A DNA stretch of 64,000 bases from the NCBI GenBank assembly GCA_963664175.2, contig CAXXOI010000013.1, positions 9,784 to 73,783 of the forward strand, written 5' to 3'. The notes beneath the pieces are model-generated. The model was given only the letters and a program-made list of their open reading frames with translations, had not been told where the DNA came from and did no database searches. Each line of letters begins with the position of its first letter. The stretch's first letter is position 1. Shown one piece after another: positions 1,592 through 51,305 of this stretch. The translations under genes were made by a program, and so were the position numbers. The stretch comes from Dehalococcoidia bacterium. GTDB lineage: Bacteria > Chloroflexota > Dehalococcoidia > Lucifugimonadales > UBA3495.

Positions 1592-2223
1592 GCGTCACTC
1601 CTCGATGTCGGGTCCGATGGCCAGCGAGTCCACCGCCCGTTAATGGCTAACCAACAACTCTTGGATAGAGGCCGCTGGCGGCAGGGACCGGCCCGGACTG
1701 CACACCCTCCGGCGGCATGGCGATAGTTTACGCCAGAACGGACCCGTCCTCCACGATCTCAATGGTCGTTACGAAACAGTGAATGAGAGCTTACCGCTCC
1801 GGGAAGGCACCTTCCAAGAGGAACGCCCGGAGGTCGGCCACGTACCCTTTTGATCTCCAAACTGGGGGACGACTCCGCCCATCGTTGCAACCCAGCAGCG
1901 GGGTCTGGGAATAATATCCTGCCGGCGCAGAGCAAATCCGCTTACCCTCTTCACGTGCGCTACAATTAAATCCTTGTGCAAGTTTCTGGCTATGCTCACA
2001 TTGGTCCCGTTGTAGCAGGGATGGCCACCAAAGCAAGCGCAGCCCGGGGTTGAGTGAGACATATGCACAGTGCTTATTCAGTCTACGGTTCCAACTTTAG
2101 CTCTTCCTCTTAGGCCAATGGAACCGCAAGACTATTCCTCGTCGATCAGACCTTCAGGCTGCTGTCCTGATCTTCCCACCCTTCTGGTCATGCGCCTCAA
2201 CTTGGCTTTTAATAGCGCCGGAT

Positions 2224-2625
2224 CTATGGACCATGCCCGAGTGCTGCGCTGATGCGAACTCTGGCAAGCACGTACGCGTGGTGGCCATCGATCCACCCAT
2301 AGTCTCTCTTCAAGTGATCAGGCACTGACTGACATCGTCCTTTGCTACTGAAAAGCCGGTGCACCCGTTCTCCATAATTCGGTTGGTGAAGTCCATCCAA
2401 CTGGCAACCGAAAGGCGGTAGATCCAAAGTGTACGACCTCGTGGGGAACTTTTCCCCTTGCGATGTGACGCTCGTCTCCTTGCCGGAACAATGGGTGCAA
2501 CTAAACTGAGTACAAGCCCCAACGGCCGGTGGAGCTGCTCTGACAAAGCCATCCGTCGAGCACGGCGCGTGGTCAATTGTTGTTTTAGTGGAACTCCTCA
2601 ACGAGCGAATGCATTGGGAAATCAC
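2224..2625 (-). CDS. Hypothetical 133-aa Cys-rich protein conserved in both repeat copies
   Basis: ORF-track protein is nearly identical to 49685..50086. It diverges from the integrase gene and contains CTQFSCTHC. No family recognised; could be non-coding. Confidence 0.3.
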   Translation of the reverse strand: MISQCIRSLRSSTKTTIDHAPCSTDGFVRAAPPAVGACTQFSCTHCSGKETSVTSQGEKFPTRSYTLDLPPFGCQLDGLHQPNYGERVHRLFSSKGRCQSVPDHLKRDYGWIDGHHAYVLARVRISAALGHGP

Positions 2626-2653
2626 ACGAGACGCTTCCCATAGCAGGTAGGCG

Positions 2654-3803
2654 ATGGCGCGTGGGACGATTAGACAGCGTTCGAAAGTCAGGAAGGACTC
2701 GTGGACCGTCCAGGTCTACACCGGTGTGGACCCCAACACTAGGAAGAAGCGCTATTACTAAGAAGCTGTCAAGGGGACCAAGACCTTGGCCCAGCACCGA
2801 CTGACCGAGTTGCTGCGCTAAGTGGACACAGGTACTTTCGTGGAGCCCTCTCGCCAGACGGTGGCTGCATATCTCGAGCAATGGCTCCGGGATTCAGCGG
2901 CGCCCCGTGTCTCCAGCCGTACGCTGGAGAGCTATAAGGGTAATGTTGATCGCTACCTCGTGACCAAGCTGGGTGAAGTTCCTCTGGAAAAGCCTGCCCC
3001 TCGTCACGTGCAGGAAATGGAAGCTCAACTCCTAAAAAAGGCGGTAGAAATGGAGGGCCACTTTCACCCCGGACCGTGGTCCAAGTCCACAGAGTTCTAT
3101 CAAAGGCAATGAACGTCGCAGTCAAGCTCGGTATAGTGTTCAGGAACGCGGTCGATGCTGTTGAGCCTCACCGTACGACCAAGTACGAGGCGCAGTATCT
3201 GGGCTGGGAAGAGGTGCACGCTTTCCTGGACCAAATAACAGACCCGCTGCATCAGACCCTGGCCTTGCTAGCCATTCAGACGGGGCTGCGAGGTCCGAGT
3301 TAAGGGGACTCCATTGGAGAGACATTGATTTTTGTGCCAGCACGCTGTCCGTGCGAAGGGCGCTAATCAAGCTGGCATCCAGCGCGACGGAATTGGAGGT
3401 GCCCAAGAATGGCCACGGACGAGTAGTTGACTTGCCTTCAGAGTCGTACGAGGCTTTGAAGGCTCACCGGGAACGAAATCGGGATACCTCGGGGATTGGC
3501 AATTTCGTTTTTTGCCATTCTGATGGGTCTCCCCTCGATCCTGACCTTGTAACTCAAGCGTTTGAGCGCTTGGCGAAGAAAGTTGGTCTGCCGGGATTGA
3601 GGCTCCACGACCTGCGCCACACTCTCGCCTCCTTGATGATGTCTCAAGGTATACACACCAAGATAGTCTCCAAACGGTTGGGGTATAGTTCCATCGGAAT
3701 AACGATTGATTTATACTCGCATGTGTTGCCAACGGTGCAAGGAGAGGAATTAAGCCATTTGGGGGCTGAGTGGAAGAAAAGAATGGCAGATTCAGGTGAC
3801 TGA
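2654..3803 (+). pseudogene. Tyrosine (phage-type) integrase, copy 1, disrupted
   Basis: Starts MARGTIRQRSKVRKDSWTVQVYTGVDPNT. In-frame TAA at 2759-2761 and 2819-2821. Frameshifts near 3040 and 3290 split it into track ORFs 2822..3112, 3076..3303 and 3351..3803. The C-terminal part keeps LRLHDLRHT...IDLYSHV (HxxR and catalytic Tyr). Confidence 0.9.
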
Positions 3804-3824
3804 AATCCTCTAGTATCGTATCTC

Positions 3825-3863
3825 GGGAGTGGATGGGGCCCGGTGGCCCTTGCGGTCTTCAAA
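3825..3863 (+). other. Truncated tRNA-Sec 5' half (acceptor 5' strand through anticodon loop); putative attL core
   Basis: The 39 nt GGGAGTGGATGGGGCCCGGTGGCCCTTGCGGTCTTCAAA are identical to positions 1-39 of the tRNA at 51306-51402. Identity stops inside the anticodon loop. Confidence 0.85.
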
Positions 3864-5373: not shown

Positions 5374-6030
5374 TCAGAAGTCGCTGGTCGTGCCCTCCTC
5401 CTGAAAACCGTCGTCAGCTCCATCGGGGCAGTCGGCCGGGGTGATCTCACAGAACCGGCACTCCCCTGGGCTGGGCACCCGCTTGGCAGGAATCTGCGAC
5501 GCCAGGCGGCGGATGAGCGCGCCCAGGCTTTCGACAAACCTCCCGTCGACCGCCTCGGCCGGTATGTCGACCACATGGTCGGGGTAGGCCATCTGGCCGG
5601 CGATGCTGAGCCCACGGTACCGTTCCAGCGCGCAGGGCAGGGCGTACATGTAGATCAGCACCTGAGCGGTGTGGGCCGGGCTGGGACGGCTGGTCTTGGC
5701 GTCTATGACCGTTATCTGATCCCGTCGCCTGGCGACCAGGTCGGGCTTGCCGGCCAGCACGGCGCTGCTGCCCCGGAGGTTGAAGGAGTTCTGTCCCTCG
5801 GTCAGGACGCTGTAGCCCTGTTGCCCCCAACGCACACGCTGCACGTTCAGTAGTGCGGTGTGGTTCATCATCCAGCCGGTCTGGTCGAAATCGGAAGGCA
5901 TGCGGCTCCAGCTCCAGCCTTCGTGCTGGGCCTTGAACCACGATGACCACTCACAGGAGCTTCCCCCGGAGAGCAGGCTGGGCAGCCAGGTGATCCAGAT
6001 GTAGGGACCGGTGGGGCGGAGCTGGGCCAT
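5374..6030 (-). CDS. PD-(D/E)XK nuclease, Cas4/RecB-like, with Cys cluster
   Basis: KPDLVARRRDQITVIDAKTS (D...D-x-K type motif), plus one N-terminal Cys (SSCEW) and C-terminal CRFCEITPADC. This matches the Cas4/AddB-type 4-Cys Fe-S arrangement. Confidence 0.6.
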   Translation of the reverse strand: MAQLRPTGPYIWITWLPSLLSGGSSCEWSSWFKAQHEGWSWSRMPSDFDQTGWMMNHTALLNVQRVRWGQQGYSVLTEGQNSFNLRGSSAVLAGKPDLVARRRDQITVIDAKTSRPSPAHTAQVLIYMYALPCALERYRGLSIAGQMAYPDHVVDIPAEAVDGRFVESLGALIRRLASQIPAKRVPSPGECRFCEITPADCPDGADDGFQEEGTTSDF

Positions 6031-6847
6031 AATCCGATTCCCGTGGCGTTTGGTTTTAGGGACGGCTGTCTCTAGTTTTTGGGGGAGTTCCGCCGCTCAG
6101 CAACGGGCAATTGTCACCAATTGTGATGGCGGCTGAAGCTTTCCGTTGATCTTGCTGGTACATTCTTAGACAAGCGGGTATCTGGCTTAGGAAAGATGCC
6201 GGGTTCTGATTGTTGGCGGCCAGGCTTGGCGGGTGAGCGGCGGAAAGTTCATCGACGACACGAACGAGCTTGAGTAGATCTCCGCCTCTGTATGAAAAAC
6301 TGGGATGGTACCCGGTCTCCTTGTGGTGCTCGTCCTGCTGCTGGGCACCTCATCTGTGTCCCGGGACTGGAACCTTATTCGATGAGTTGACAGCGCCTGC
6401 TCCGTACTTGTGCTACGTCGACAATTCCTGCCGATATGGCGTTGATTGGTCTTGCGGTTCTCCTTGGCTTACCGAAAGGCTGCGTACAGCTTGGTTGATC
6501 GGCTGAACACTATGGACTTGCGCCGCCTACGGCTCCGGGCCAAGCCGGTCTTGCGGCCATTTCTGCTATAAGGGACGAATATGAGCATAGCCAGAACTAT
6601 GCTAATCGTAATTTTAAGCCGCCATGCCACAAGCGAGTACCAGTGACGCTTACGCATACAACCTACAGACCTAATGTCTGCGCTGTCCGACTGCGAGCAG
6701 GACTTCGAGGACATGGGGAGCGATGCCCCTGAGATCCTGTCTCCCGAAAGAGATGACGAGGCCGACTGGAAGCCCGGGACCTGTATGGCAGTACAGAATA
6801 AGGATTGACGAGACGAACCCTGCGAGTCGACACTGAATGCTGTCCAT

Positions 6848-9800
6848 TTGACCACTGGGGTTTTTGGACTCAGGAACCCATTCGACTCAGCGGTGCAAGA
6901 TATGGAGAACCCTTTCTTCGACGACCCGATACTGAACTCGCCTTACGACCACCCATCACGTCATTGGGAGTTGGACGAAGCGGGTCAACCGACCCAGGCC
7001 ATCATCGAGGCTCGCAGGGGAGCGGAGTTCATCACGCCCATCCCCAAGCCGCGTCAGCGAGGACGGGCGCGCGGCGGACGCCAAGAGCAACTGGTCTTCG
7101 ACGAGGGGCAAGGGCTTTCCACGGAAGAGCAGCAGTACGACGTTACTGCCGCGGTGAACGAGATTCGCCGGTACGTTGACCAGTGGCGTGAAATCCCCAA
7201 CCCTCGGGACTGGGGTGTGACGGCGGAGACCGCTCTGCTGCTCCAGCATTGGCGGCACCACAGGTTTAGCCACTACCGCCCTTTCTTCTGCCAGGTAGAG
7301 GCTGTTGAGACGCTTATTTGGCTCACGGAGGTTGCTCCCAAACTCGGTCAGGGCGAACGGCTGGCACTCCAGCGCCTGGAAAGCGCCAGCCTGGAAGCGA
7401 ATCCCGAACTGTTGCGGGTAGCACTGAAGCTGGCAACCGGGGCGGGCAAGACCACCGTGATGGCCATGATCATCGCGTGGCAGACCATCAACGCAGTGCG
7501 TCACCCAAACAGCCGCAGGTTTACCCGGGGGTTCCTGGTGGTGACACCTGGAATCACCATCCGCGACCGGCTCCGAGTGCTGCAACCGAACGACCCTGAC
7601 AGCTACTACGCCAGCAGGGAACTGGTGCCCACCGACATGTTGGGCGACCTGCAACGGGCGAAGATAGTCATCACCAACTACCACAGCCTCCGTCCCAGGG
7701 AACGACTGTCGATATCCAGCGGCGGCAGGGACCTCCTTCAAGGACACGGAAACCGCATCGAGACCGTGGAGACCGAGGGCCAGATGATGCAGCGGGTGAT
7801 GCCCGAACTGATGGCCCTGAAAAACATCATGGCGCTGAATGACGAGGGTCACCACTGCTATCGCCAAAAGCCCGGCGAGGCTGACGAAGGTCCTCTGACA
7901 GGGGAGGACAAGCGGGAAGCGGAACGGAACGCCGAGGAAGCCCGAGTGTGGCTCTCCGGGCTGGAGATGGTGAACAGGAAGCTCGGCGTCCGGAAGGTGG
8001 TGGACCTGTCGGCCACGCCGTTCTTCCTGCGGGGATCGGGCTACGCCGAAGGAACGCTGTTCCCGTGGACGGTGAGCGACTTCTCGTTGATGGACGCCAT
8101 CGAGTGTGGCATCGTCAAGCTGCCGCGCGTTCCGGTGGCGGATAACATACCGGGAGCCGACGTGCCGGTGTTCCGCAACCTGTGGGAGCACATTCGGGGA
8201 GAAATGCCGCGGGCGGGAAGGGGCCGGTCGGGTGTCCTGGATCCTCTGGACCTGCCCACGCCATTGCAGACAGCCCTGGAGGCCCTGTACGGGCACTACG
8301 AAAAGACATTCAAGGAGTGGGTGGCAGACGGTGCCGAGTGCCCGCCGTGTTTCATCGTGGTGTGCAACAACACGTCCACATCCAAGCTGGTCTATGACTA
8401 CATCTCCGGATTTGAGCGCGAGAACGAGGACGGCACCACCTCGGTGGTCAACGGGCGGATGGAATTGTTCCGAAACTTCGACGAGTACAGCAACCGGTAC
8501 TCCATCCCCCGAACCCTGCTGATTGACAGCCAGCAGCTCGAGTCCGGCGAAAAGCTGAGCGATGACTTCCGCCGCGCCGCCGCCGACCTGATCGAGCGGT
8601 TCAGGCGGGAACGCCAGGAACGCACTGGCAACCGGGAGGAGGCCGACAACATATCGGAGCAGGATCTCCTGCGCGAGGCCATGAACACCGTCGGCAAGGA
8701 GGGGCGTCTGGGCCAGGGCATCCGTTGCGTGGTCTCGGTGTCCATGCTCACCGAGGGGTGGGACGCCAACACCGTCACCCACGTGCTCGGCGTCAGGGCT
8801 TTCGGAACGCAGCTCCTGTGTGAGCAGGTGGTGGGCCGGGCTCTGCGGCGTCAGTCCTACGATCTGAACGACGACAACAAGTTCGACGTCGAGTACGCCG
8901 ATGTGCTCGGGATTCCCTTCGACTTCACCGCTCGGCCCGTGGTGGTGGGGCCCGGCAAGCCGCGGCAGACGGTGCAGGTTAAAGCGATGCGGCCCGAGCG
9001 GGGCCACCTGGAGATCACCTTCCCGAGGGTGGCCGGCTACCGGGAAGACCCTCCCAAAGAGGACTTGGTGGCAAACTTCACCGATGACTCACGGCTGGAT
9101 CTGACGCCGGAACTGGTGGGGCCGACGGAAACAAGAAACGAGGGCATTATCGGCGAGGGCGTGAACCTTAACCTGGTGCACACCGGCGACCTGCGCATGT
9201 CGACGCTGGTGCTCCACCTGACCAAGCGCTTGCTGGAGACCAAGTGGCGCGACCCGAATGAGGACATGAAGCTGCACTTGTTCGGCAAATTGCGGAGCGT
9301 GGTCAAGGAGTGGCTGGACAACTACCTGGACTGCCGGGGCGGGACCTATCCGGCGCAGCTGATGTACCAGTCGCTGGCCGACATGGCCTGCAACCGCATC
9401 ACAGCCGCCATCACCAGCAGATACGGTGAGCGGTCCGTCAAGGCTCTGCTGGACTCGTTCAACCCCACAGGCTCAACTCGCAACGTGAACTTCACCACCT
9501 CGCGGGAAGGACTGTGGGCCACGGACTCCCGTAAGTGCCATGTCAACTATGTCGTGCTGGACAGTGACTGGGAGGCGGAGTTCTGCCGGGTGGTGGAGTC
9601 TCACCCGTCGGTGCGGGCCTACGTCAAGAACCACAACCTGGGGCTGGAGGTGCCGTACCTATACGGCTCCACGCCCCGGCGCTACTTTCCCGACTTCATC
9701 CTGCTGGTGGACGATGGGCACGAGGACCCGCTGCATCTCATCGTTGAGATCAAGGGATACCGGGGTGAGGACGCCAAGGAGAAGAAGAACACCATGGAGG

Positions 9801-10072
9801 CCTACTGGCTTCCGGGCGTGAACGCCTTGGGCGACTACGGCCGCTGGGCCTTTGCTGAGTTCACCGACGTATTTGACATCGAACTCGGCCTGCGGCAGGT
9901 GATCGAGGCTCACCAAAGAGGCTCCGGGAATGGCCCACTTGACTATAGCGGCCTCAGTTTCAAGGAGTTATTGGTGTCAGGTCCTTCCTTCGACGATCTG
10001 GATCTGACACGATCAGTCGACTACGGACGTGATGTATCTTTTCTTCATGATGATGTCAGCGAGTCCCCTTAG
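6848..10072 (+). CDS. res: Type III restriction enzyme Res subunit (SF2 helicase + PD-(D/E)xK nuclease) with an extra antitoxin-like C-terminal tail
   Basis: LKLATGAGKTTVMA (motif I), NDEGHHCY (DExH), TEGWDANTV...QVVGRALRR (motif VI), YFPDFILLV...VEIKGY (nuclease). The last ~50 aa (nt 9911-10069) lie beyond the nuclease core. Confidence 0.9.
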   Translation: MTTGVFGLRNPFDSAVQDMENPFFDDPILNSPYDHPSRHWELDEAGQPTQAIIEARRGAEFITPIPKPRQRGRARGGRQEQLVFDEGQGLSTEEQQYDVTAAVNEIRRYVDQWREIPNPRDWGVTAETALLLQHWRHHRFSHYRPFFCQVEAVETLIWLTEVAPKLGQGERLALQRLESASLEANPELLRVALKLATGAGKTTVMAMIIAWQTINAVRHPNSRRFTRGFLVVTPGITIRDRLRVLQPNDPDSYYASRELVPTDMLGDLQRAKIVITNYHSLRPRERLSISSGGRDLLQGHGNRIETVETEGQMMQRVMPELMALKNIMALNDEGHHCYRQKPGEADEGPLTGEDKREAERNAEEARVWLSGLEMVNRKLGVRKVVDLSATPFFLRGSGYAEGTLFPWTVSDFSLMDAIECGIVKLPRVPVADNIPGADVPVFRNLWEHIRGEMPRAGRGRSGVLDPLDLPTPLQTALEALYGHYEKTFKEWVADGAECPPCFIVVCNNTSTSKLVYDYISGFERENEDGTTSVVNGRMELFRNFDEYSNRYSIPRTLLIDSQQLESGEKLSDDFRRAAADLIERFRRERQERTGNREEADNISEQDLLREAMNTVGKEGRLGQGIRCVVSVSMLTEGWDANTVTHVLGVRAFGTQLLCEQVVGRALRRQSYDLNDDNKFDVEYADVLGIPFDFTARPVVVGPGKPRQTVQVKAMRPERGHLEITFPRVAGYREDPPKEDLVANFTDDSRLDLTPELVGPTETRNEGIIGEGVNLNLVHTGDLRMSTLVLHLTKRLLETKWRDPNEDMKLHLFGKLRSVVKEWLDNYLDCRGGTYPAQLMYQSLADMACNRITAAITSRYGERSVKALLDSFNPTGSTRNVNFTTSREGLWATDSRKCHVNYVVLDSDWEAEFCRVVESHPSVRAYVKNHNLGLEVPYLYGSTPRRYFPDFILLVDDGHEDPLHLIVEIKGYRGEDAKEKKNTMEAYWLPGVNALGDYGRWAFAEFTDVFDIELGLRQVIEAHQRGSGNGPLDYSGLSFKELLVSGPSFDDLDLTRSVDYGRDVSFLHDDVSESP

Positions 10073-10497
10073 TGTATTTGCTAGACACCAACGTCGTCTC
10101 AGAGTTGCGCAGGCGAGACAGGTGCGACGAGAACGTGGCTTCCTGGTATGACAGTATTTCAGACGACGAGCTGTTCTTGAGCGTGCTGACGTTGGGCGAA
10201 ATTCGCAAGGGGATCGTGCTGGTTCAGGATCGCGACCCCTTACAGGCTGAAGCCCTTGACCATTGGCTGACGCATATGAAACAAAGTTACGATGGACGGA
10301 TTTTGTCAGTAAGCTCGAACGTTTCAGAAGTATGGGGTCAAATGCACTACATCCGAAACGCCCCCGTCGTTGATGGCCTTCTTGCGGCCACTGCCATGGT
10401 CCATAATCTGACGCTGGTAACACGCAACATTCAGCATGTGCAGGGCCTGGGCGCGAGCCTGCTCAATCCCTTTGCACCTGCCGCGGGAGGGCAATAG
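10072..10497 (+). CDS. vapC: VapC/FitB-like PIN-domain toxin
   Basis: MYLLDTNVVSELRR..., LTLGEIRKG, VDGLLAATA, LVTRNIQH: the typical PIN acidic-residue layout. The GTG start overlaps the res stop by 1 nt (TAGTG). The stop is 2 nt before the mod ATG. Confidence 0.85.
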   Translation: MYLLDTNVVSELRRRDRCDENVASWYDSISDDELFLSVLTLGEIRKGIVLVQDRDPLQAEALDHWLTHMKQSYDGRILSVSSNVSEVWGQMHYIRNAPVVDGLLAATAMVHNLTLVTRNIQHVQGLGASLLNPFAPAAGGQ

Positions 10498-10499
10498 CC

Positions 10500-13334
10500 A
10501 TGCCCCGACCACGACGCAACCGCACCGCCGCCGGCAAATCAGTCGAGGCGCTGCGCCACGAGGCGGACACCCGCACCAACATCCCCACCGCGGAGTACCA
10601 GTCGATGGTGGAGGAGGACACGGAGTCACCCCTCCGCATCGCCTACCAGCGGCGCAACCGCGACCTGGACCCGCAGCTGGTCTGGCGGGGCAAGGACGAG
10701 CAGGACATGGCCGACCTGGTGGTCAACGTGCCGCCCCTGTACATCCAGGAGAAGGTGCACCCCAAGGTGCTGATCGACGACCTGCTGCGCCAGTCGCGGA
10801 ACGGCAGCCAGCCGTCGGAGTACCAGGTGGAGATGTTCGCCGATTTCAACGGGCTGCCCGAGGGCGCCGACCGCACCGAGTTCTACCAGCACGAGGGCTA
10901 CTGGCAGAACCGCATGGTCCTGGGCGACAGCCTGCAGGTTATGGCCTCGCTGGCCGAGCGGGAGGGCCTGCAGGGCAAGGTGCAGTGCATCTACATCGAC
11001 CCGCCCTACGGCATCCGGTTCAATTCCAACTTCCAGTGGTCCACCACCAGCCGCGACGTCCGCGACGGCAACCGCCAGCACATCACCCGCGAGCCGGAGC
11101 AGGTCAAGGCCTTCCGCGACACCTGGCGAGACGGCATCCACTCTTACCTGACCTACCTGCGCGACCGTCTCACCGTGGCCCGCGACCTGCTGGCCGACTC
11201 CGGCTCCATCTTCGTCCAGATTGGCGATGAGAACGTCCACCGTGTGCGGTCGCTGATGGACGAGGTGTTTGGAGAGGAAAACTTCGTAAGCCTGATTTCG
11301 ATTCAGACAACTTCCGGATTCCAAGCCAAGTATCTGGGCAATATGTCGGATTTTGTACTGTGGTACGCCAAGAATATAGATACTGGGAAGTCACGTAGCC
11401 CCTTATACCGTAAAGAATTCGTCGTTGGTGAAGGCAATGCCCACTGGTTAATGTTTGATGATTTCACTTACCGGGGTGTGATGGCGCAAGAGAAACGGCA
11501 CTCGGTCGTCCCTGAAGGTGCCAAACCGTACAACCCGGGTGATCTCACATCGCAAGGTCGCGCCCGCGATAGGCAACCGTTCTTGTATGGCGGGAAAAAA
11601 TATGACACGTGGGACAAAAATGCGCACTGGAAAGCGAATTACCCGACAGGGATGAACCGGTTAGCACGAGCGGGTCGTATACATGTCGCGCAGAATTCCA
11701 TCAGGTATGTTCGTTATCACACAGATTTCGATGCAGCGGTTCACGGAAACATATGGACCGACACCGGGACCGGTAGCTTCACCGACGACAAAACCTACGT
11801 CGTGCAAACTAACTCGAAAATCATAGAACGTTGCATCTTGATGACCACCGACCCCGGAGACCTGGTGCTGGACCCCACCTGCGGCTCAGGGACCACGGCC
11901 TACGTGGCCGAGCAGTGGGGACGGCGGTGGATCACCATCGACACCTCCCGCGTCGCCCTGGCCCTGGCCAGGGCCCGCATCATGGGCGCCCGCTATCCCT
12001 ACTACATCCTCGCCGACAGCAAGGATGGGCAGCTCAAGGAGGCCGAGCTGTCCCGACGCGCCCCGTCGGAGATGCCCACCTACGGCAACGTGCGGCAGGG
12101 GTTCGTCTACGAGCGGGTGCCGCACATCACCCTGCGCGACATCGCCAACAACGCCGAGATCGACGTCATCTGGGAGGAGTACCAGGAGAAGCTGGAACCG
12201 CTGCGGGAGGAGCTGAACCGGGCGCTGGACACGGCGTGGGAGGAGTGGGAGATTCCTCGCGACGCCGATGATTCGTGGCCGGAGGAGGCCACCGAACTGC
12301 ACCGGCAGTGGTGGGAGCAGCGCATCGACCGGCAGAAGAAGATCGACGCCTCCATCGCCGCCCGGGCCGAGTACGAGTACCTGTACGACAAACCCTACGA
12401 GGACCGCAGCAGGGTGCGGGTGGCCGGCCCCTTCACCGTGGAGAGCATCTCGCCCCACCGGGTGCTGGGCGTGGACGAGAACGGCGACGTGATCGACGGC
12501 ATAGCCGAGGCCCGCAACGGCTACGGCACGGGCTACGACTTCGGCCAGGTCATACTGGATAACCTGCGGCGTTCCGGCGTGCAGCAGGCCCACCGCGAAG
12601 ACCGCATCAGCTTCACGTCGCTGACGCCCTGGCCGGGGCGGTTCGTCTGCGCCGACGGCCGGTACGTCGAGGGCGGCAGCGTCGGGGATGACGAGGATGC
12701 GCCGACAGGTCCCGAGCGGCGGGCGGCGGTGTTCATCGGGCCGGAGTTCGGCACGGTGTCGCGTCCCGACCTGGTGGAGGCGGCGCGGGAGGCTGCCGAC
12801 GGCGGGTTCGACGTGCTCATCGCCTGCGCCTTCAACTACGACGCCCACACCACCGAGTTCGAGAGCCTGGGGCGAGTGCCGGTGCTGAAGGCCCGCATGA
12901 ACGCCGACCTGCACATGGCGGGCGAGCTTCGCAACACCGGCAGCGGCAACCTGTTCGTCATCTTCGGCGAGCCGGACATCGATGTGCTGGACTGCGGGGA
13001 CGGGCAAATCCAGGTGCGGGTGAACGGCGTGGATGTGTTCCACCCCAACACAGGCGAGGTGCGCAGCGACGAGCCCGACGGCATCGCCTGCTGGTTCATC
13101 GACACCGACTACAACCAGGAGAGTTTCTTCGTCCGCCAAGCCTACTTCCTCGGTGCCGGCGACCCCTACAAGTCGCTAAAGACCACCCTCAAGGCCGAAA
13201 TCGACGAGGACGCCTGGGCCACGCTGCACAGCGCCACCTCGCGCCCGTTCCCCCGACCGGAGTCGGGCCGCATAGCCGTCAAGGTAATCAACCACCTGGG
13301 CGACGAGGTTATGAAGGTGTTCCGGGTGGGGTAA
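10500..13334 (+). CDS. mod: Type III-like DNA methyltransferase Mod (beta-class, DPPY then FxGxG)
   Basis: CIYIDPPYGIRFNSNF (motif IV) precedes LDPTCGSGTTAYVAEQWGRRWITIDTS (motif I). The long C-terminal extension is typical of large Mod proteins. Confidence 0.9.
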   Translation: MPRPRRNRTAAGKSVEALRHEADTRTNIPTAEYQSMVEEDTESPLRIAYQRRNRDLDPQLVWRGKDEQDMADLVVNVPPLYIQEKVHPKVLIDDLLRQSRNGSQPSEYQVEMFADFNGLPEGADRTEFYQHEGYWQNRMVLGDSLQVMASLAEREGLQGKVQCIYIDPPYGIRFNSNFQWSTTSRDVRDGNRQHITREPEQVKAFRDTWRDGIHSYLTYLRDRLTVARDLLADSGSIFVQIGDENVHRVRSLMDEVFGEENFVSLISIQTTSGFQAKYLGNMSDFVLWYAKNIDTGKSRSPLYRKEFVVGEGNAHWLMFDDFTYRGVMAQEKRHSVVPEGAKPYNPGDLTSQGRARDRQPFLYGGKKYDTWDKNAHWKANYPTGMNRLARAGRIHVAQNSIRYVRYHTDFDAAVHGNIWTDTGTGSFTDDKTYVVQTNSKIIERCILMTTDPGDLVLDPTCGSGTTAYVAEQWGRRWITIDTSRVALALARARIMGARYPYYILADSKDGQLKEAELSRRAPSEMPTYGNVRQGFVYERVPHITLRDIANNAEIDVIWEEYQEKLEPLREELNRALDTAWEEWEIPRDADDSWPEEATELHRQWWEQRIDRQKKIDASIAARAEYEYLYDKPYEDRSRVRVAGPFTVESISPHRVLGVDENGDVIDGIAEARNGYGTGYDFGQVILDNLRRSGVQQAHREDRISFTSLTPWPGRFVCADGRYVEGGSVGDDEDAPTGPERRAAVFIGPEFGTVSRPDLVEAAREAADGGFDVLIACAFNYDAHTTEFESLGRVPVLKARMNADLHMAGELRNTGSGNLFVIFGEPDIDVLDCGDGQIQVRVNGVDVFHPNTGEVRSDEPDGIACWFIDTDYNQESFFVRQAYFLGAGDPYKSLKTTLKAEIDEDAWATLHSATSRPFPRPESGRIAVKVINHLGDEVMKVFRVG

Positions 13335-13378: not shown

Positions 13379-14263
13379 ATGACGTACTTCAGCGACAGAG
13401 AGTTTGGGCAGCGGCCGTCCACAGAGGAAGAGATTGAGGAGCCGGTGTGGGAAGGTCTTCGGGCACTCATTGTGAGCAAGCTCGAAGATGGTTCGTTTGG
13501 CGTGGACTTTCCTGACACTTGTCCAGATGGAACGGTACCGGTTGGTACCGACAAGGGTAAATTTGAAGCAGTCTTGTACGCAGAAATTCCAACCTTGCCT
13601 AGGAACATCTTTGGTCATTACCGTGACGGTTCTCCCACCACTATTGATATTCTTGACCTCTTGGAATTCTGCCTACTTCATGTTGCTGAACCGGTGGAGG
13701 GTTCTTATCATTCTTTCTTTCGTCATTCCCATTTGAGCTTCGATAGAGAGTTGGGCCGGCAGAAGTTTTCGGAAGCAGTTAACCGAATCCTCAGTCGCAA
13801 CGGGCTTGCATACACACTTACTGGCGAAGGAATCATCGAGCGGCTTGCACCTCCTGTCTTGCGAGAGGAGTTAATCTCCGCGCACTTTCAGTCAGGCGAT
13901 GCCACACTGGATGCATTATTGGAGGATGCTAGACGGAAGTTTTTCAGTCCCCGAAAGGAAACCCGTGGAGAGGCGTTGGAGAAACTTTGGGATGCCTGGG
14001 AAAGGCTCAAGACGACCGGGGAAGGGTCTGGTAAGAAGGAGCAAATCAACTCGCTGCTTGATGGAGCGGCCGGTACGATTTCCCCGCAGTTCCGGCAGCA
14101 TTTGGAAGCTGATGCAAAAGAACTGACTGACTTGGGCAACAACCTACAGATTCGGCACTTCGAGGTTGGCAAAGAAATGATATATAGGAGTGAACACATC
14201 GATTATCTGTTTCACCGTCTCTTCAACATGGTCCAGATCATCATTCGGACCAAGGGTATCTAA
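13379..14263 (+). CDS. Uncharacterised 294-aa protein, defence-island associated (possibly AbiJ-N-terminal-domain-like)
   Basis: GGAG ribosome-binding site 6 nt upstream. Visibly lower GC than its neighbours. N-terminus MTYFSDREFGQRP and C-terminal LGNNLQIRHFEVGKE...HIDYLFHRLF. The family assignment is from memory only. Confidence 0.65.
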   Translation: MTYFSDREFGQRPSTEEEIEEPVWEGLRALIVSKLEDGSFGVDFPDTCPDGTVPVGTDKGKFEAVLYAEIPTLPRNIFGHYRDGSPTTIDILDLLEFCLLHVAEPVEGSYHSFFRHSHLSFDRELGRQKFSEAVNRILSRNGLAYTLTGEGIIERLAPPVLREELISAHFQSGDATLDALLEDARRKFFSPRKETRGEALEKLWDAWERLKTTGEGSGKKEQINSLLDGAAGTISPQFRQHLEADAKELTDLGNNLQIRHFEVGKEMIYRSEHIDYLFHRLFNMVQIIIRTKGI

Positions 14264-14314: not shown

Positions 14315-16393
14315 ATGCAATTTCGCATAGCCGACACGTTCACCTCCAGCCTGGCCAAGCTGCCCAACGACCAGCAGAGGGCGGCGAAGACCACTGCTTT
14401 CGACCTGCAGACCAATATCGCCCATCCGAGCCTCAGCTTGCACCGCGTGACCGGGGCCAGGGATCCGGGCTTTTGGTCGGCGAGGGTTAACCTAGACCTG
14501 CGCATCATCCTGCATCGTGAGGGTGAGGACGTCGTCCTCTGCTACGTGGACAGCCACGATGACGCCTACCGGTGGGCGGAACGCCGCCGGCTGGAGACCC
14601 ACCCCACCACCGGCGCGGCGCAGCTTGTGGAACTGCGGGAGGTAGTGCAGGAGGTGGTTGTTCCGGTCTACGTGGAGGAGGAACGGACGGGGCTGCCGAA
14701 GTCGTTGCCTTTCGCTCGCATCCCGGATGAGCAACTGCTGGGGTACGGCGTGCCTAATGAGTGGCTCGACGATGTCAGAGGCGCCACCGAGGACAGTGTG
14801 CTGGACCTGGCCGACCACCTGCCGGCGGAGGCGGCCGAGGCCCTGCTGGAACTGGCGGTGGGTGGGACTCCGCAGCCGTCCCTCCCGGTGCCGGCGGGAG
14901 GCGATCCCTTCAGCCACCCAGATGCCCTGCGCCGGTTCCGCATTATGAATAACGTCGAGGAACTAGCGGCGGCCCTCGAATATCCGTGGGAGAGATGGAC
15001 TGTCTTCCTTCACCCCGACCAACGAGGCATCGTGGAGCGAAACTACAACGGGCCTGCCAGGGTATCCGGCTCGGCGGGTACGGGCAAGACCGTCGTCGCC
15101 CTGCACCGGGCTGCCCACCTGGCCAGGACCGACCCGGACGCCCGCGTGCTGCTGACAACCTTCTCTGACGCGCTGGCCAGTCAGTTGCGAGCTAAACTCG
15201 CGGTTTTGATGAGCGACGGACCTGAGGCGGTGGACAAAGTTGAAGTTCAAGCTCTGGATGCTCTGGGTCTCAGCCTGTACGAGGCCAGATACGGGACAGT
15301 GGAACTGGCGACGACGCGCATCGTTGAGGAACTCATCGTGGAGGCTGTCTCAGCAGAGGGAACCAACTTCGCCTTGGCGTTCGTTACGTCGGAGTGGGAG
15401 AGGGTCATCGACGCCTGGCAGCTGTCGACGTGGGAGGATTACCGGAACGTGCGTCGCATCGGCCGGTACCGGCGTCTGTCCGAGACCCAGCGTGAGACAC
15501 TGTGGCCGGTGTTCGAGCAGGTGAGGGCAGGACTTCGGCAACGAGGGTTGATTACAAAAGCGGAAATGTTCGGGCGGCTTACCACCGAACTCGCTGGGCA
15601 AGAAGTATCGCCGTATCAGTATGTAGTCGTGGATGAAGCCCAGGATGTCAGTGTCCCGCAGCTGAGGTTCCTGGCAACCCTCGCCGGAGGCCGCCAGAAC
15701 GGCCTGTTCTTCGCTGGCGACATTGGGCAACGTATCTTCCAGCAGCCGTTCTCATGGCGGGAACTGGGCGTAGACGTGCGAGGACGCTCACAGACCTTGC
15801 GCATCAACTACCGCACCTCCCACCAGATCAGGTCACAGGCGGATCGCCTGCTGGATCCGGAACTGTCAGACGTAGACGGCAACACCGAGGAACACAGGGG
15901 AACCGTGTCCGTCTTCAACGGGCCGAAACCGACCGTGCGGGCCCTCGCGGGCGAGAATGCAGAAATTGAGGCGGTTGCAGAGTGGTTAAAGGTGCGAATC
16001 AAGGATGGCCTTGAGCCCAATGAGGTTGGGATCTTCGTTAGGTCCCCTGAACAGATCGACAGGGCCGTCGCCACTGTGAAGAGTGCTGGCCTGCCGTACA
16101 GCGTCCTGGACGACGGTGTGGAGACGGGTGATGGTGCCGTTAACGTCGGCACGATGCACCTGGCCAAGGGCCTCGAGTTCCGCGCCGTCGCGGTGATGGG
16201 CTGCGATAGCGAGGTCATCCCTCTGCAATCAAGGGTCGAGTCGATCGTCGACGAGGCCGACTTGGAAGAGGTCTACAACACCGAGCGGAACCTGCTGTAC
16301 GTCGCCTGCACCCGTGCCCGGGACCAACTGTTGGTTACTGGGGTAAAGCCCGTATCAGAGTTTCTCGATGACCTTGTGATCAACGACAATTAG
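14315..16393 (+). CDS. UvrD/PcrA-type SF1 helicase with N-terminal RelE/ParE-like domain
   Basis: N-terminal DLRIILHREGEDVVLCYVDSHDDAYRWAERR, then GSAGTGKTVVALHRA (Walker A), YVVVDEAQDV (Walker B) and LLYVACTRARDQL. Confidence 0.85.
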   Translation: MQFRIADTFTSSLAKLPNDQQRAAKTTAFDLQTNIAHPSLSLHRVTGARDPGFWSARVNLDLRIILHREGEDVVLCYVDSHDDAYRWAERRRLETHPTTGAAQLVELREVVQEVVVPVYVEEERTGLPKSLPFARIPDEQLLGYGVPNEWLDDVRGATEDSVLDLADHLPAEAAEALLELAVGGTPQPSLPVPAGGDPFSHPDALRRFRIMNNVEELAAALEYPWERWTVFLHPDQRGIVERNYNGPARVSGSAGTGKTVVALHRAAHLARTDPDARVLLTTFSDALASQLRAKLAVLMSDGPEAVDKVEVQALDALGLSLYEARYGTVELATTRIVEELIVEAVSAEGTNFALAFVTSEWERVIDAWQLSTWEDYRNVRRIGRYRRLSETQRETLWPVFEQVRAGLRQRGLITKAEMFGRLTTELAGQEVSPYQYVVVDEAQDVSVPQLRFLATLAGGRQNGLFFAGDIGQRIFQQPFSWRELGVDVRGRSQTLRINYRTSHQIRSQADRLLDPELSDVDGNTEEHRGTVSVFNGPKPTVRALAGENAEIEAVAEWLKVRIKDGLEPNEVGIFVRSPEQIDRAVATVKSAGLPYSVLDDGVETGDGAVNVGTMHLAKGLEFRAVAVMGCDSEVIPLQSRVESIVDEADLEEVYNTERNLLYVACTRARDQLLVTGVKPVSEFLDDLVINDN

Positions 16394-18450: not shown

Positions 18451-21400
18451 CTATTCTGCCACTCTAATTCGACCGAATTCCTCCACAAGTAGTTCCTCAT
18501 CACACAATTCCTGCACACGCAAACTGATCGCAGAGTTAATCTTCGAGCCTGCCCTCCCGAACCCATAAACCCTTGCAACTTCCCTTATCAACTCGGACCT
18601 GGGGGTCCCGAACATTGCCCTTACGGTCTCCACGATGACCGCTCTCAACTCGCCTGGGGGCACGTATTCAATCTTTCGATCACAGGCTGTGCGTGGTTGC
18701 CGCTCCAGTTGCTCGTCATCGACCCATACAAAGTCCTCGGCTCGATGGAGAGTTCCCTGTCCGACCAGATGGTCAATGAGCCGAAATACCCTCCCTCTGG
18801 CAGTGGCGGACAGGCGCTCTGAGTAGTAACACTCTTTTATGCGGTCCAGGACAGCCTCTATAGGTACAGGGCCCTCGACTTTCACAACTGTGCCAACAAG
18901 TTCCGTCAGGACATTAACGGACTCGTCGGCAATTCCGTAACGCGAACCGGTCCTTGGCAAAGGAGCTTTCTGGTATTGCGCCAGTTCCAGCTTGCTTGCC
19001 TCGGGCTGCATGACCTCGAACTCTTCCAAATCAGATGCAGGAGTAGGGTAAAAATCAGCGGGCGCCTCGGCCGTAACCGTGAAACTGCTCCTCGAGGCAA
19101 TAAGGGCCTCCTCGACACGCTTAATCTCTGCGTCCGGATTTTTGGCCCAGGCTGTGGACCAGATCCTCAAGATACGCCAGCCGAGGCCCTCGAGGACCTG
19201 TTGCCTTTGCCAGTCGCGGTCTCTAGCGGCAGGGGCGCTGTGATATTGCCATCCATCACACTCTATCCCCAGATCATAGCCGTCCGAGTCCTCCGACATA
19301 ATAGCCAGATCAATCCGGTAACCCGCCACTCCCACCTGACGGTGGATCCTGTACCCTCTGGCGAGCAGCGCCTTCTCAACGGACTCTTCGAAAGGAGAGT
19401 CGGGTTCGGCTTCAGGGTCCACGGTCACCTGACCTACGATGGCACGGTTTGGAGCCTCAGCGTATTCCAGGTAGCGTTTGAGCATCCTAGGACCGGTCCG
19501 ATCAGAGGTGATTGCCGATGGAAGCAGGGAATGGACTACATCCATCCGCCGCCGGGCCCTGGAAACCACTACATTAAGTCTCCGCTCGCCCCCGGGAGTG
19601 TTTAGGGGCCCGAACCTGTTCGGCGTAGCTCCGGATTCTTGCGTGGGACCGTAGCCAATGCTGACTATGATCCGGTCCCGCTCGTCTCCCTGGACGTTCT
19701 CTAGATTCTTGACGAAAAAAGGCTCATCCAAGTCCGCTGCGAAACGATGGTCAACATCGCGTCCGTTTAGGCGTCTATTTTCGATCAATCTGTCTATATG
19801 ATCGGCCTGAGCACGGGATAGCGCTACGACTCCAAGGCTCTCATGGGCAGGACGGGACCGCATATGTTCGAATACCAGGTCTGCCACGCGTTCCGCCTCA
19901 GCCCGGTTCGTCCTGGTGGCCCCAGCGTCATATCTGCCCTCAGGGATGTGGATGTCATGCACACCTTCCCAGGAATTACCATCCGATTGTGACGGAGAGG
20001 GAAAGGTGAGCAATCGGTCATCGTAGTAATAATGGTTGGAAAATCGGATCAAACTGTCGTGTTTGCTCCGATAGTGGACGGATAGATGCGCCTCGGAAAA
20101 AACTGAGCCGGCCAATCCGATTGCAACGTCGAGGATACTTTCCTGTCCAGCAAGACGGTCTTGCGGTTCTTCATATCCGTCTTCGTCGTATCCCTCTTCC
20201 TCCTGAGCCTGGGCCCGGAAGAAACTGCTGGGTGGTAACTGCTTCTGATCTCCAGCGAAAACCACCTGTTTGCCGCGCCGAACTGCGGGAATGGCATCTT
20301 CGGGAAAGACCTGGGACGCCTCGTCGAATATGACAACATCGAAATCCAAGTCCGGGGGGAGAGATTGACTGACCGCAAGAGGGCTGACCAGAAAACACGG
20401 CTTGAGTACCTGCACAAGCCGCGGAATATTCTGCAGCAATCTCCGAACACTCCACTGGCGCCGTTGTTTGGAAAGTTCTCGGCGCATTATTGCCAGGTCG
20501 CTGGTTCCGGAGGTCCCTACGCGAAGATCCGGGTAGGACTGAAATACCCGTTTGCGTATTTCGTTTTGCGCGGTGTCGACCAGCCTCTGGTCAAGGTCCC
20601 TGAATCTGTCAGCGTGAGTGGCGTGCTCAGACGTTCCGAACTGGGCGAGCTCGGGCTCCTGGGAATTTAGCCAATCGAGCCATGCCGTCCACAGGCGGCG
20701 CTGGATGACCAGGGGAACTACGGAGCTGTCGTCGGTAGCCTCTCTAATTCGAGACGTAGTACCGCTCCCGATGTGGTTGTCCAGATCAGAAACGGCACCC
20801 TGATAGGTCAGCCAGTCACCCGCCGAATCCGCTTCCGCCGCAAGTCTCTTGAGCCATTGAAGTGCGTGATCAAAATCGGTTTCCTCACCTTCGGCGAAGG
20901 GAGTGAACGCCAGGTCGTATCGTTCCTCCAGGGATTCCAGCAGCATCCACATGCGATCAACCGTTGCAGTGGCATGTTCTGCGGTTTCCCGGTACGCAGA
21001 TGCAGGCATGGGATGTTCCACTTGTTGAATAAGGCTCGACGAGAAGTCGGCAGTGGGCCTCAGTCCGATCAGGTGCCGGGCCCAATCCAAGGATTCCTCA
21101 ATCTCGGTCCAGTCGGTGTCGAAATCCCGGTAGCGCGCGCCGAATCCTAGCTGAAGGTCAACTTGCCGCTCCGTGTTCTCTCCTTCCAACCGGCGAACAC
21201 TGCTCCCCTTTTTCAACAAATTTTTCAGATGGACTACGTCAGGAATCGTGCCGCGGCTGGTATCAACAGAGGATTCCACCACCTTTTCAATCCTCTCCAC
21301 AATTCCTAGCGCTTCATCCAATTGCTCTGTGTAGTTCTTCAAGTTCAGGACGTCGTTCGATAACTTCTGCCCTACCTGCGTGTTTAGTTGGCTGCAATGC

Positions 21401-24930: not shown

Positions 24931-26053
24931 GGTTGCCCACCAACTTGTCGTCCAGGCTGCTCGTCACGCACCCGATCAAGTCGTTGCTGCCGAGCTTCAG
25001 CTCTACTAGGTTGGCGAGGCTGCCCAGCTCCGCCGGTATCTCTCCACTCAACTGATTATTCCTGAGGTTCAGATTTGTCAGTCTGGGGAAGTTGCTCAGC
25101 CACGGTGGTATCTCCCCGGTCAAGGCGTTGTTGCCGAGACCCAAGAATGCCAGGTTGATAAGGCTGCCCAATTCTGGCGGAATTTCCCCGCTCAAGTCGT
25201 TGTCGCCGAGGTCCAGCACCTCCAGGTTGGAGAGGCTGTTCAGCGCCGGCGGTATCTCCCCACTCAACCGATTGTTATAGATGACCAGCTCTGTCAGGTT
25301 GGAGAGGCTGCGCAACTCCGGCGGTATCTCCCCGCTTAACTGGTTCCAGTTGAGGTACAGGCGTGCCAGGTTGGAGAGGCTGCCCAACTCCAGTGGTTTC
25401 TCCCCGCTCAACTAGTTCCCACCAAGGCCCAGAACTGTCAGGTTGGAGAGGTCGCCCAGCTCCAGTGGTATCTCCCCGTTCAAATCGTTGTGTTCGAGGT
25501 TTAGATATTTCAGGTTGGAGAGGTTGCCCAACTGGGGCGGTGTCTCCCCGCTCAACTGGTTCGCGGCGAGGTGCAGCTGTTTCAAGTCGACTAGGTTGCC
25601 CAGGTGCGGTGAAATCGGCCCAGCCAGCTGGTTATGGTTGAGCAACAATGCGATCACCCGTCCCGTGTCGTCAGTGACAACAAGGTCCCATTCCTCCAAG
25701 GGTGCGTCGCTAAGCCAGTTTGTGTTGTTCTTCCAGTTTGGGCCGTTTGTGGCATGGTAGAGGGCGACCAGGGCTTCCCGGTCTGTTTCGGTGGAGCCAG
25801 AAGCGGAAGGCAACGCCATAGCCGGTGCACCGGTGGGAGTGGGCGAGGCCCCTGACCCTGGCGTGGAACGCGTCTGTGCGGGGGAGGCCTGCGTCTCCGA
25901 ATCACCAATGGGCCGTTCAGAGTCGGGCAGGTCTGTCGGTTCGGCGGTGGCCCGTTCCGAGGATGGCACAGCCGTCGGCTGATCAGGACCGGCGCAGGCC
26001 AGCAGCAGCAGTGTCAAGGCAAAGCTTCCCAGGAAAAGTGGTGATGTTCTCAT
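24931..26053 (-). pseudogene. Leucine-rich-repeat lipoprotein (24-residue LSGEIPPELGxLxNL repeats), interrupted
   Basis: Start ATG at 26053 gives MRTSPLFLGSFALTLLLLACAG (lipobox). In-frame TAG at 25412-25414 within GGN*LSGE (the repeat consensus has Q). The expected C-terminal ...LGGLLLC is followed by read-through into unrelated DNA (track ORF 24086..25411). Confidence 0.7.
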
Positions 26054-26573
26054 ATCGCCGCAGTTCCTGCGTTTGCTTGGCCTTGGTGGTGCGGCGTGTT
26101 CGCATTCTAGCACTCGCCGGGGAATTCCCTGCCTCCGCACCCTGCACACCGGAGTCAACGACCCAGACAGTTTACCCGTCTGGCGTCCGTTTCGACTCCG
26201 CCGGTGGCAGTGGCTTGCTGTGTCCCATGGGAGCGCCAATGTCAAAAACACCCACCCGGGAGAGAATGCCTGATCCACACTCCAGCGGACGGGGGCAATT
26301 TCCCCTCGGAAGTAGCGTCGTTGCAGTCGGTCGTCAACGGTCAGGAGACGAGGCCCGTTCAGTCCACCGGGTTACGTCTGGCAGTCAGGGGACCGGTTGC
26401 GCTAACCGCTATTTCAGAGTTTTAAGGGGCCATCTCCCGTGTGCGAGACTATGGTCAGGACTCCCGGGTGCAGGGATTGTTCCACGCGACAACGAAAATG
26501 AAAGTTGACGTTGAACACCCCGCGCGCATGCCCGAAACCCCACTGTTTGATTCGTCGTTGTAACATTGGGTAA

Positions 26574-49500: not shown

Positions 49501-49684
49501 CCCGATTCTAACCTGCAGGATCGCTTGCTGAAACCGGCGATAACCGTACCACGGGACAAGGCGAATCTGATGGAGGACTTGTTGCAGTCTTGCGACCGGT
49601 GCGGAGACCCGGAGGGAATGGTCCCGGATACAGGGGGAAATCACCCTCGGAGGATCTGAATGTCCACAGGCCCTAGCGCCGGAT

Positions 49685-50086
49685 CTATGGACCATGCCCG
49701 AGTGCTGCGCTGATGCGAACTCTGGCAAGCACGTACGCGTGGTGGCCATCGATCCACCCATGGTCTCTCTTCAAGTGATCAGGCACTGACTGACATCGTC
49801 CTTTGCTACTGAAAAGCCGGTGCACTCGTTCTCCATAATTCGGTTGGTGAAGTCCATCCAACTGGCAACCGAAACGCGGTAGATCCAAAGTGTACGACCT
49901 CGTGGGGAACTTTTCCCCTTGCGATGTGACGCTCGTCTCCTTGCCGGAACAATGGGTGCAACTAAACTGAGTACAAGCCCCAACGGCCGGTGGAGCTGCT
50001 CTGACAAAGCCATCCGTCGAGCACGGCGCGTGGTCAATTGTTGTTTTAGTGGAACTCCTCAACGAGCGAATGCGTTGGGAAATCAC
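49685..50086 (-). CDS. Hypothetical 133-aa protein, copy of 2224..2625
   Basis: The ORF-track proteins differ at only a few residues. Confidence 0.3.
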   Translation of the reverse strand: MISQRIRSLRSSTKTTIDHAPCSTDGFVRAAPPAVGACTQFSCTHCSGKETSVTSQGEKFPTRSYTLDLPRFGCQLDGLHQPNYGERVHRLFSSKGRCQSVPDHLKRDHGWIDGHHAYVLARVRISAALGHGP

Positions 50087-50114
50087 ACGAGACGCCTCTC
50101 ATAGCAGGTAGGCG

Positions 50115-51260: not shown

Positions 51261-51305
51261 GCAAATTCAGACCAAGACGGATAAAATTCTTTCCGTCCTG
51301 AACAC

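Follow-up and report, generated by a model that had tools for sequence, protein, structure and literature searches.

Toxins kept silent within restriction-modification (R-M) loci have been described before. PrrC, called an 'RM guardian', is a latent RNase encoded in the EcoprrI Type IC R-M locus; its presumed antitoxin is the R-M protein, and disabling restriction would release the RNase (PMC12707154). In this work we analysed a stretch of 64,000 nucleotides (nt) of contig CAXXOI010000013.1, hereafter the window, which holds a three-gene operon, res-vapC-mod, encoding a Type III-like restriction subunit (Res), a FitB-like VapC toxin with a PIN domain and a methyltransferase (Mod). The analysis indicates that a toxin-antitoxin (TA) cassette occupies the junction between res and mod and that its antitoxin has probably been reduced to a C-terminal peptide, fused in frame to Res, which would bind and neutralise VapC.

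The solved VapBC and FitAB complexes provide the structural background: an arginine near the antitoxin C-terminus enters the acidic active site of the PIN domain, and this Arg plug is described as conserved (VapB Arg64, FitA Arg68; PMC3384007). Like these pairs, the locus has a full-length FitB homologue, a tail of the cognate-antitoxin type and a stop/start overlap as found in ordinary pairs; unlike them, it has no antitoxin gene and no DNA-binding/dimerisation domain, so that no TA autoregulation would be expected, and the peptide sits on a restriction subunit of ~120 kDa. With PrrC in EcoprrI it shares the nesting of a latent toxin gene in an R-M operon, here vapC between res and mod, a position conserved in relatives. 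PrrC, however, is an ABC-ATPase/anticodon nuclease hosted by a Type I system, whereas here the toxin is a PIN protein and the host system is Type III-like. No antitoxin-derived peptide, moreover, is known on the R-M subunit of the PrrC locus, whereas at the present locus the presumed mask, from which the toxin would be released, can be recognised by homology.

CapRel-SJ46 and EzeT are single-gene fused toxin-antitoxins. As in such fusions, including those of RelE and HicA (PMC11980606, PMC10865869), the antitoxin function would here be a domain of a larger polypeptide, but their antitoxin is joined to its own toxin, whereas here it would be carried by a third protein with an enzymatic role of its own and the toxin is separate. 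In the Rpn intragenic antitoxins, too, an antitoxin function comes from the 3′ part of a large nuclease gene; the Rpn small proteins, however, have their own translation and neutralise the larger protein within which they lie (PMC10400941), whereas the res tail has no conserved internal start and its presumed target is another protein. Defence genes embedded within multi-gene immune operons have also been described already (Payne et al., bioRxiv 10.1101/2024.01.29.577857), and this locus resembles them in having an accessory defence/TA cassette between R-M genes. In that work, however, the guests are independent, they lie in Hma, BREX, DISARM and Type I R-M systems, and no host-guest fusion is reported. 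In our literature search we met no published account of a restriction subunit with a fused antitoxin peptide. An earlier note on this DNA knew of no described Type III R-M system with this architecture. Embedding is already known (bioRxiv 10.1101/2024.01.29.577857; PMC12707154), as are RM guardians and fused TAs; what is new is narrower, the antitoxin peptide carried by Res.

The res-vapC-mod operon and the C-terminal tail of Res

The operon and the parts of its central cassette are the following, in window coordinates:

6902..10072, forward strand: res, Type III-like restriction subunit of the BPTD_3080 family, 1056 amino acids (aa) from the probable start ATG at 6902 (longest open reading frame, ORF, from TTG 6848)
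9910..10497, forward strand: low-GC cassette (tail plus vapC), exchangeable unit at the res-mod junction
9911..9955, forward strand: linker HQRGSGNGPLDYSGL, first residues past the normal Res end and left end of the cassette
9956..10039, forward strand: tail core SFKELLVSGPSFDDLDLTRSVDYGRDVS, derived from an antitoxin and homologous to the presumed toxin-binding segment at the C-terminus of cognate antitoxins
10040..10069, forward strand: 10-residue extension FLHDDVSESP, past the canonical antitoxin end and specific to fused clade A
10072..10497, forward strand: vapC, FitB-like PIN-domain toxin of 141 aa, its GTG start overlapping the res stop
10500..13334, forward strand: mod, Type III methyltransferase of 944 aa

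The longest res ORF (1074 residues) matched the NCBIfam model NF046055, 'BPTD_3080 family restriction endonuclease', with 1309 bits over residues 25-1017, and Pfam recognised ResIII and RE_endonuc in it. Its translation shows the superfamily 2 (SF2) helicase motifs GAGKT, DEGH and QVVGRALRR and, at the C-terminus, the PD-(D/E)xK motif PDF...EIK. Since classical Type III Res models fitted only weakly (PRK15483, E=1e-3; PADLOC REase_III, E=1e-6), 'Type III-like' is the safer term for the system; a literature search for BPTD_3080 returned no papers. The gene probably starts at the ATG at 6902 and not at the TTG of the longest ORF, because the Res proteins of relatives have 1056 aa and nucleotide homology begins at 6902.

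At Res residue 1017 the NF046055 model is consumed to position 968 of 970, which leaves ~57 residues extra, and the additional segment begins at codon H1022 (nt 9911). A typical Res of the BPTD_3080 family stops ~35 aa past the WAFAEF motif. The nearest tail-less Res (P0129, on contig L089), with a C-terminal domain 97% identical to that of the window Res, coincides with it through ...LRQVIEA and then stops after seven more residues (YYSAHVH). Judged from the end of the model, the usual end of the family and this tail-less neighbour, the tail is not native to Res. The last 60 residues of Res matched nothing in Pfam or NCBIfam, and the sequence before the tail is the Res nuclease domain, not an antitoxin N-domain. 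AlphaFold2, applied to the last 300 residues of Res with 86 relatives, modelled the nuclease domain with confidence to about residue 253, whereas the final ~45 residues obtained a pLDDT (predicted local distance difference test) of 36-41 and formed no more than a short helix, over FKELLV. In this model the tail is a flexible, disordered appendage with a nascent helix, as expected of an antitoxin segment that folds on binding.

The three genes are closely packed. The res stop TAG (10070-10072) shares 1 nt with the vapC GTG (10072), and the vapC stop TAG (10495-10497) is followed by a 2-nt gap and the mod ATG (10500). Between res and vapC there is no ORF that resembles an antitoxin, the sole other ORF there being an overlapping, out-of-frame one of 40 aa (10029-10151). 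A scan for sigma-70 promoters and terminators gave none on the forward strand inside the operon, which is weak evidence in a host that is likely a member of the Chloroflexota.

VapC carries the Pfam PIN domain (PF01850, E=4e-12), and its profile matched Neisseria FitB (PDB 2BSQ, 2H1O, 2H1C) full length, over residues 1-137, with E about 3e-19. It had no PADLOC match at E<=1e-5 and is a PIN protein, not a homologue of PrrC or RloC. Among 28 relatives, its residues D5, E43 and D101 show little or no variation.

To identify the partners of this toxin family, 80 genomic loci with relatives of the window VapC were taken from species-representative genomes and the ORF ending at each vapC start was read. 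At most of them, mainly from Alphaproteobacteria and Binatia, vapC is preceded by a protein of ~90 aa that ends ...SLKALLASAPLDGIDLDRSRDLGRDVDL before the stop; these free-standing relatives are ordinary two-gene TA pairs with the same kind of stop/start overlap. At the Dehalococcoidia loci, the ORF before vapC is a Res of ~1050 aa. Free antitoxin partners end ...LKALLASAPLDGIDLDRSRDLGRDVDL, compared with ...FKELLAAAPLEGIDLTRPRDLPRDIEF for the Res tails and ...SFKELLVSGPSFDDLDLTRSVDYGRDVSFLHDDVSESP for the Res of the window. Canonical tails finish on RD[VI][DE][LF] and a stop, whereas the tails of fused clade A run on as S[FI]L[YH]DD..E...

A hidden Markov model (HMM) built from 43 free-standing antitoxin C-termini only, without any Res tail, placed the Res tail (9956-10039) top among the 1254 six-frame segments of the window, with E=3e-6, and revealed no other antitoxin-like sequence in the window; a second, weak match at 25415-26371 on the reverse strand was rejected as spurious, as it falls in a leucine-rich repeat (LRR) protein. 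By BLASTP, the tail matched the free antitoxin of locus L057 with E=1e-4. In an alignment of tails and free antitoxins four positions are invariant (L, P, R and R), and the two family-invariant arginines, which lie in the tail core, are consistent with the published Arg plug (PMC3384007). On these comparisons, the Res tail and the C-terminal segments of the antitoxins paired with this FitB-like family of VapC toxins are homologous. When 1.8 billion representatives were searched exhaustively by phmmer with the tail, only 7 matched, almost all of them Res fragments with the same tail, which shows conservation but not the antitoxin family.

The free partners themselves belong to several families. 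Distant ones are FitA-like RHH proteins (PF22513, E=1e-14), one is a DUF2283 protein (E=2e-13) and the common alphaproteobacterial antitoxin had no family match; Phd/YefM matched neither the tail nor any of 4 representative free partners. Neither FitA nor VapB was matched when the PDB was searched with a FitA-like partner or with the profile of the tail.

Much of what the earlier note had read from this part of the sequence stands. The gene order with its 1-nt overlap and 2-nt gap agrees with the coordinates given here, as do the lack of a separate antitoxin ORF and the loss of the antitoxin N-terminal domain, and the Res family does end before the tail. The acidic residues expected of an active VapC are conserved at the three positions named above, and the fourth is occupied by N119/H122. 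Two statements had to be amended: res, given as 6848-10072, keeps its stop but most likely not its start, and the likeness of the tail to antitoxin C-termini was supported by the HMM and BLASTP, whereas the Phd/YefM label was not, the partners being RHH, DUF2283 or unclassified proteins.

Recurrence of the fusion and exchange of cassettes at the res-mod junction

The arrangement of tailed Res, vapC and mod is recurrent and not peculiar to a single island, synteny being a point on which the earlier note had left the matter to further searches. Res and Mod flank vapC in L001-L012, L015, L025, L048, L056, L058, L082 and L173, where VapC identity ranges from 94% to about 51%. Nearly all of these loci encode a full-length Res and a full-length Mod, and res and mod are both intact in 10 of 12 species genomes. 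Every named genome with the arrangement belongs to the Chloroflexota/Dehalococcoidia, and at least 12 Chloroflexota species genomes carry it. The fused loci fall into two deep VapC clades in a neighbour-joining tree, and a free-standing Chloroflexota pair is the sister of one of these clades. The operon of relatives lies in a mobile defence island beside integrases. At L002-L004 (6429-8838, a 2.2-Mb genome contig) a DDE transposase cuts mod after about 289 codons while the Res tail and vapC are intact; this is a natural R-M-dead, toxin-intact locus.

The tail and vapC together behave as one exchangeable module. Their GC content falls to 0.50-0.56 at about 9900-10500, compared with 0.61-0.70 in the flanks. 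In a blastn comparison of the window with L089, homology extends to 9909 (90%) and returns from 10498 (93%), and between these flanks L089 holds a complete and unrelated pair made up of an antitoxin of 124 aa and a PIN toxin of 123 aa. We take 9910-10497 as the exchangeable unit because homology to L089 breaks at these points around a different pair, and this interval coincides with the low-GC stretch. The AT-richer, inserted TA cassette that the earlier note had suspected is thus borne out, with sharp borders at 9910 and 10497.

We then sampled the R-M family through the conserved Mod N-terminus, regardless of cassette (L092-L171, relatives of window 10500-10949). In about half of the sampled operons res abuts mod, and in the other half the junction holds inserts of 0.2-2 kb, which encode DUF4062-HATPase_c_4, Bro-N, YhcG/DUF1016, ORF6N, DUF222-HNH, DUF3800, RHH+ParE, BrnT and antitoxin+PIN pairs. 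The res-mod junction of the BPTD_3080-type R-M family is therefore a cassette hot spot, which fits the published idea of embedded defence genes (bioRxiv 10.1101/2024.01.29.577857). In one complete chromosome of 3.3 Mb (L173:1314-9699), two PIN cassettes are stacked between res and mod; two additional copies of the first ~35 mod codons lie between the cassettes, one copy being fused to a tail remnant (P0123). These repeated mod 5′ ends between stacked cassettes suggest that recombination within the conserved flanks, at the 3′ end of res and the 5′ end of mod, exchanges the cassettes.

The same Res family has been fused to a second antitoxin tail. The free antitoxin of L089, which has an RHH-like N-domain, ends ...WLAEAGGSAPDLEDIPRRRSEIQE and is followed by a second PIN toxin, PIN-2 (L089:4300-5042). 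At L090 (6001-7496) Res itself ends ...WLAKAGGSAPDLEYIPRRRSESLE and is followed, with a 4-nt overlap, by an orthologue of PIN-2. The last 32 residues of the L089 antitoxin are 72% identical to the C-terminus of the L090 Res (E=8e-12), the common pattern being ...WLA.AGGSAPDLE.IPRRRSE..., and the two PIN proteins are 63% identical, while the L090 PIN had no BLAST similarity to the window VapC. By these alignments a second, unrelated antitoxin tail was fused independently to Res. Further Res variants with second-type or composite tails precede yet other PIN proteins (L091, P0133, P0142, P0143, P0177). At L091 (4475-6032) and in P0133, a type-1 or type-2 tail is continued by about 90 more residues (...EEYADHL.EQHR...), and the composite-tailed Res of L091 is followed by a third PIN family; the extension may be a third antitoxin graft or a layered cassette replacement.

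An unfused nested form was also found. At L057 (2344-7829), in a metagenome-assembled genome (MAG) of the Vicinamibacterales (Acidobacteriota), Res ends normally and a type-1 vapC lies between res and mod, preceded by a free antitoxin of 188 aa made of DUF2283, low-complexity Gly/Arg/Trp repeats and a type-1 tail. By its gene content L057 is an intermediate between the free-standing pairs and the fusion.

Proposed mode of action and competing explanations

We propose, as the likeliest reading, that a FitAB/VapBC-type cassette settled at the junction and that its antitoxin was cut down to the toxin-binding peptide, now carried by the flexible C-terminus of Res. The tail would bind VapC, one invariant arginine would plug the acidic PIN active site, and VapC would be inactive as long as it is held on Res. 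The 1-nt stop/start overlap would couple the translation of vapC to the completion of res and, through this coupling, each VapC would be made beside a tail. As the DNA-binding domain of the antitoxin is gone, the toxin would now be controlled through the R-M operon and whatever becomes of Res. Neutralisation would then depend on a full-length, intact Res, and its loss, truncation, degradation or sequestration would free the RNase, which could provide an abortive back-up once restriction has been disabled and would equally select against the loss or inactivation of res. Whether the pay-off is a PrrC-like guard against anti-restriction, the enforcement of res integrity or both cannot be told from sequence. 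It is possible, and we suggest it tentatively, that Res is the antitoxin in the strict sense, having taken up the toxin-binding peptide of a FitA-type antitoxin and, independently, that of a second family. VapC would then be silent only in the presence of full-length Res, and phage anti-restriction that degrades, displaces or sequesters Res, or a truncation of res, would release it, leading to abortive infection.

Several observations weigh against a neutralising tail on Res. A trans-acting antitoxin may be encoded elsewhere in the genome, and all examples come from MAGs or metagenomes. A single in-frame stop interrupts vapC in two genomes of fused clade B (L015, codon 46; L082, codon 88; both 6001-6405), where either a pseudogene or a long-read assembly error would account for it, and P0150, a Res with a degraded tail, is a counter-example. 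At the fourth, less conserved acidic position of the PIN domain VapC has N119/H122 where FitB has Asp. The tail profile found no solved structure in the PDB, so that its residues could not be mapped onto FitA. As a proxy for the contact between tail and VapC, we modelled with AlphaFold2 a natural in-frame antitoxin-VapC fusion in a single ORF from a free-standing locus (P0247, L172:3186-3818; real or an assembly artefact). Its PIN domain reached a pLDDT of 88-98 and its tail segment only 37-52; owing to this low confidence, binding of the tail to VapC is something that we infer. Another long ORF, P0248, is a read-through of VapC into the Mod N-terminus and is likewise either real or an assembly artefact.

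A decayed locus is one alternative: a deletion would have fused a dying TA cassette to res and left tail and VapC as non-functional passengers. The missing N-domain of the antitoxin, the foreign-looking composition, the vapC stops in two relatives and the degraded tail of P0150 are all in keeping with it. Against it, the ratio of non-synonymous to synonymous differences (pN/pS) in the 38-codon tail core, window versus relatives, was 0.13-0.27, with binomial p down to 4e-7. In close pairs the substitution-rate ratio (dN/dS) was 0.10-0.15 for the tail core, on a level with vapC (0.15-0.17), and the linker had a higher one (0.29-0.36); L006 was left out of these figures because of assembly frameshifts. 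By these ratios the tail core is under purifying selection. The fusion, besides, has been kept down to about 51% VapC identity, with res and mod intact in 10 of 12 species genomes, and a second antitoxin family was fused convergently. We consider decay most improbable. Of the two readings that the earlier note had offered, decay or function, we favour the functional one because of the recurrence, the purifying selection, the convergent second fusion and the L057 intermediate. In a further alternative, the tail is also translated alone, from a start inside res, as a mini-antitoxin of ~32 aa. In the window, AAGGAG stands 6 bases ahead of an in-frame GTG within the FKELLV codons, like a well-spaced Shine-Dalgarno (SD) sequence. 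A 32-aa ORF from that position was called in one metagenome (P0124), and the small proteins encoded within rpn genes are a precedent (PMC10400941). The candidate start reads, however, GTA in the 4 nearest relatives; one has TTG there, clade B has GCN, and AAGGAG is simply Lys-Glu in a GC-rich genome. As the internal start is not conserved, a separately made mini-antitoxin was rejected, and we find it scarcely credible.

Two other explanations were weighed. VapC could be an active accessory nuclease held on the R-M complex by the tail, for instance cutting phage RNA or single-stranded DNA, with no masked toxin. The tight translational coupling, the conserved synteny with res and mod and the presence of PIN domains in many defence systems are compatible with such a role. 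In solved VapBC/FitAB complexes, however, the active site is blocked by the homologous segment of the antitoxin (PMC3384007), and tethering through the tail should therefore inhibit the enzyme; the free-standing relatives, in addition, are ordinary two-gene TA pairs. We consider an active effector highly improbable. Selfish stabilisation leaves the binding step as we propose it and changes only the pay-off: the cassette would be an addiction module hitch-hiking in the operon, without phage sensing, and an antitoxin placed at the end of a 1056-codon ORF would punish any deletion, frameshift or nonsense mutation in res. In its favour, the junction hot spot also holds ParDE, BrnT and other PIN pairs with free antitoxins, cassettes are swapped and stacked, and relatives keep the operon in a mobile island next to integrases. 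A free antitoxin would stabilise the operon equally well, yet the fusion arose at least twice and persists; the loci in which an insertion sequence (IS) element has cut mod and spared the tail and vapC fit either view. Selfish stabilisation as the sole pay-off appears rather doubtful to us.

To our knowledge, only a handful of back-up suicide systems, PrrC and PARIS above all, are understood at the molecular level in the way they sense that first-line immunity has been disabled. At the present locus the presumed sensor link can be read in the sequence, as an antitoxin peptide of ~30 residues on the flexible end of Res, and is directly testable. If Res is the antitoxin in the strict sense suggested above, it would be a molecularly explicit 'guard of restriction' for Type III-like R-M systems, evolved by domain grafting. 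The same type of tail is found on RHH, on DUF2283, on an unclassified domain and on Res, which shows that the toxin-binding peptides of antitoxins are portable modules, and 'orphan' vapC genes beside large defence proteins may not be orphans. The res-mod hot spot of this R-M family should be useful for finding new defence genes.

Mod and the surroundings of the operon

Mod is a beta-class N6/N4 methyltransferase of the Type III kind. It matched PADLOC MTase_III (PDLC03632, E=0) over its full length and Pfam N6_N4_Mtase (E=2e-33), and in its translation DPPY lies upstream of the S-adenosylmethionine (AdoMet) motif CGSGTT. Between the two motifs, mod 11288-11786 has a low GC content (0.47-0.55) and no nucleotide homology, by blastn, to relatives that are otherwise 84-92% identical; it is probably a swapped target-recognition domain.

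The operon sits in a defence island, with these genes around it:

5374-6030, reverse strand: Cas4-like PD-(D/E)xK nuclease, upstream of the operon
13379-14263: PADLOC candidate PDC-S32, downstream of the operon; AbiJ_NTD4-like in a relative
14315-16393: UvrD/GajB-like helicase, downstream of the operon
18451-24054, reverse strand: PDC-S37/Hhe-like protein of 1867 aa, downstream of the operon

Two regions of the window, 1984-3863 and 49675-52028, are 78-80% identical to the integrase-containing flank of the relative L004. They may be island boundaries or duplicated integrase modules, and a tRNA-SeC gene (51306-51402) adjoins one of them.

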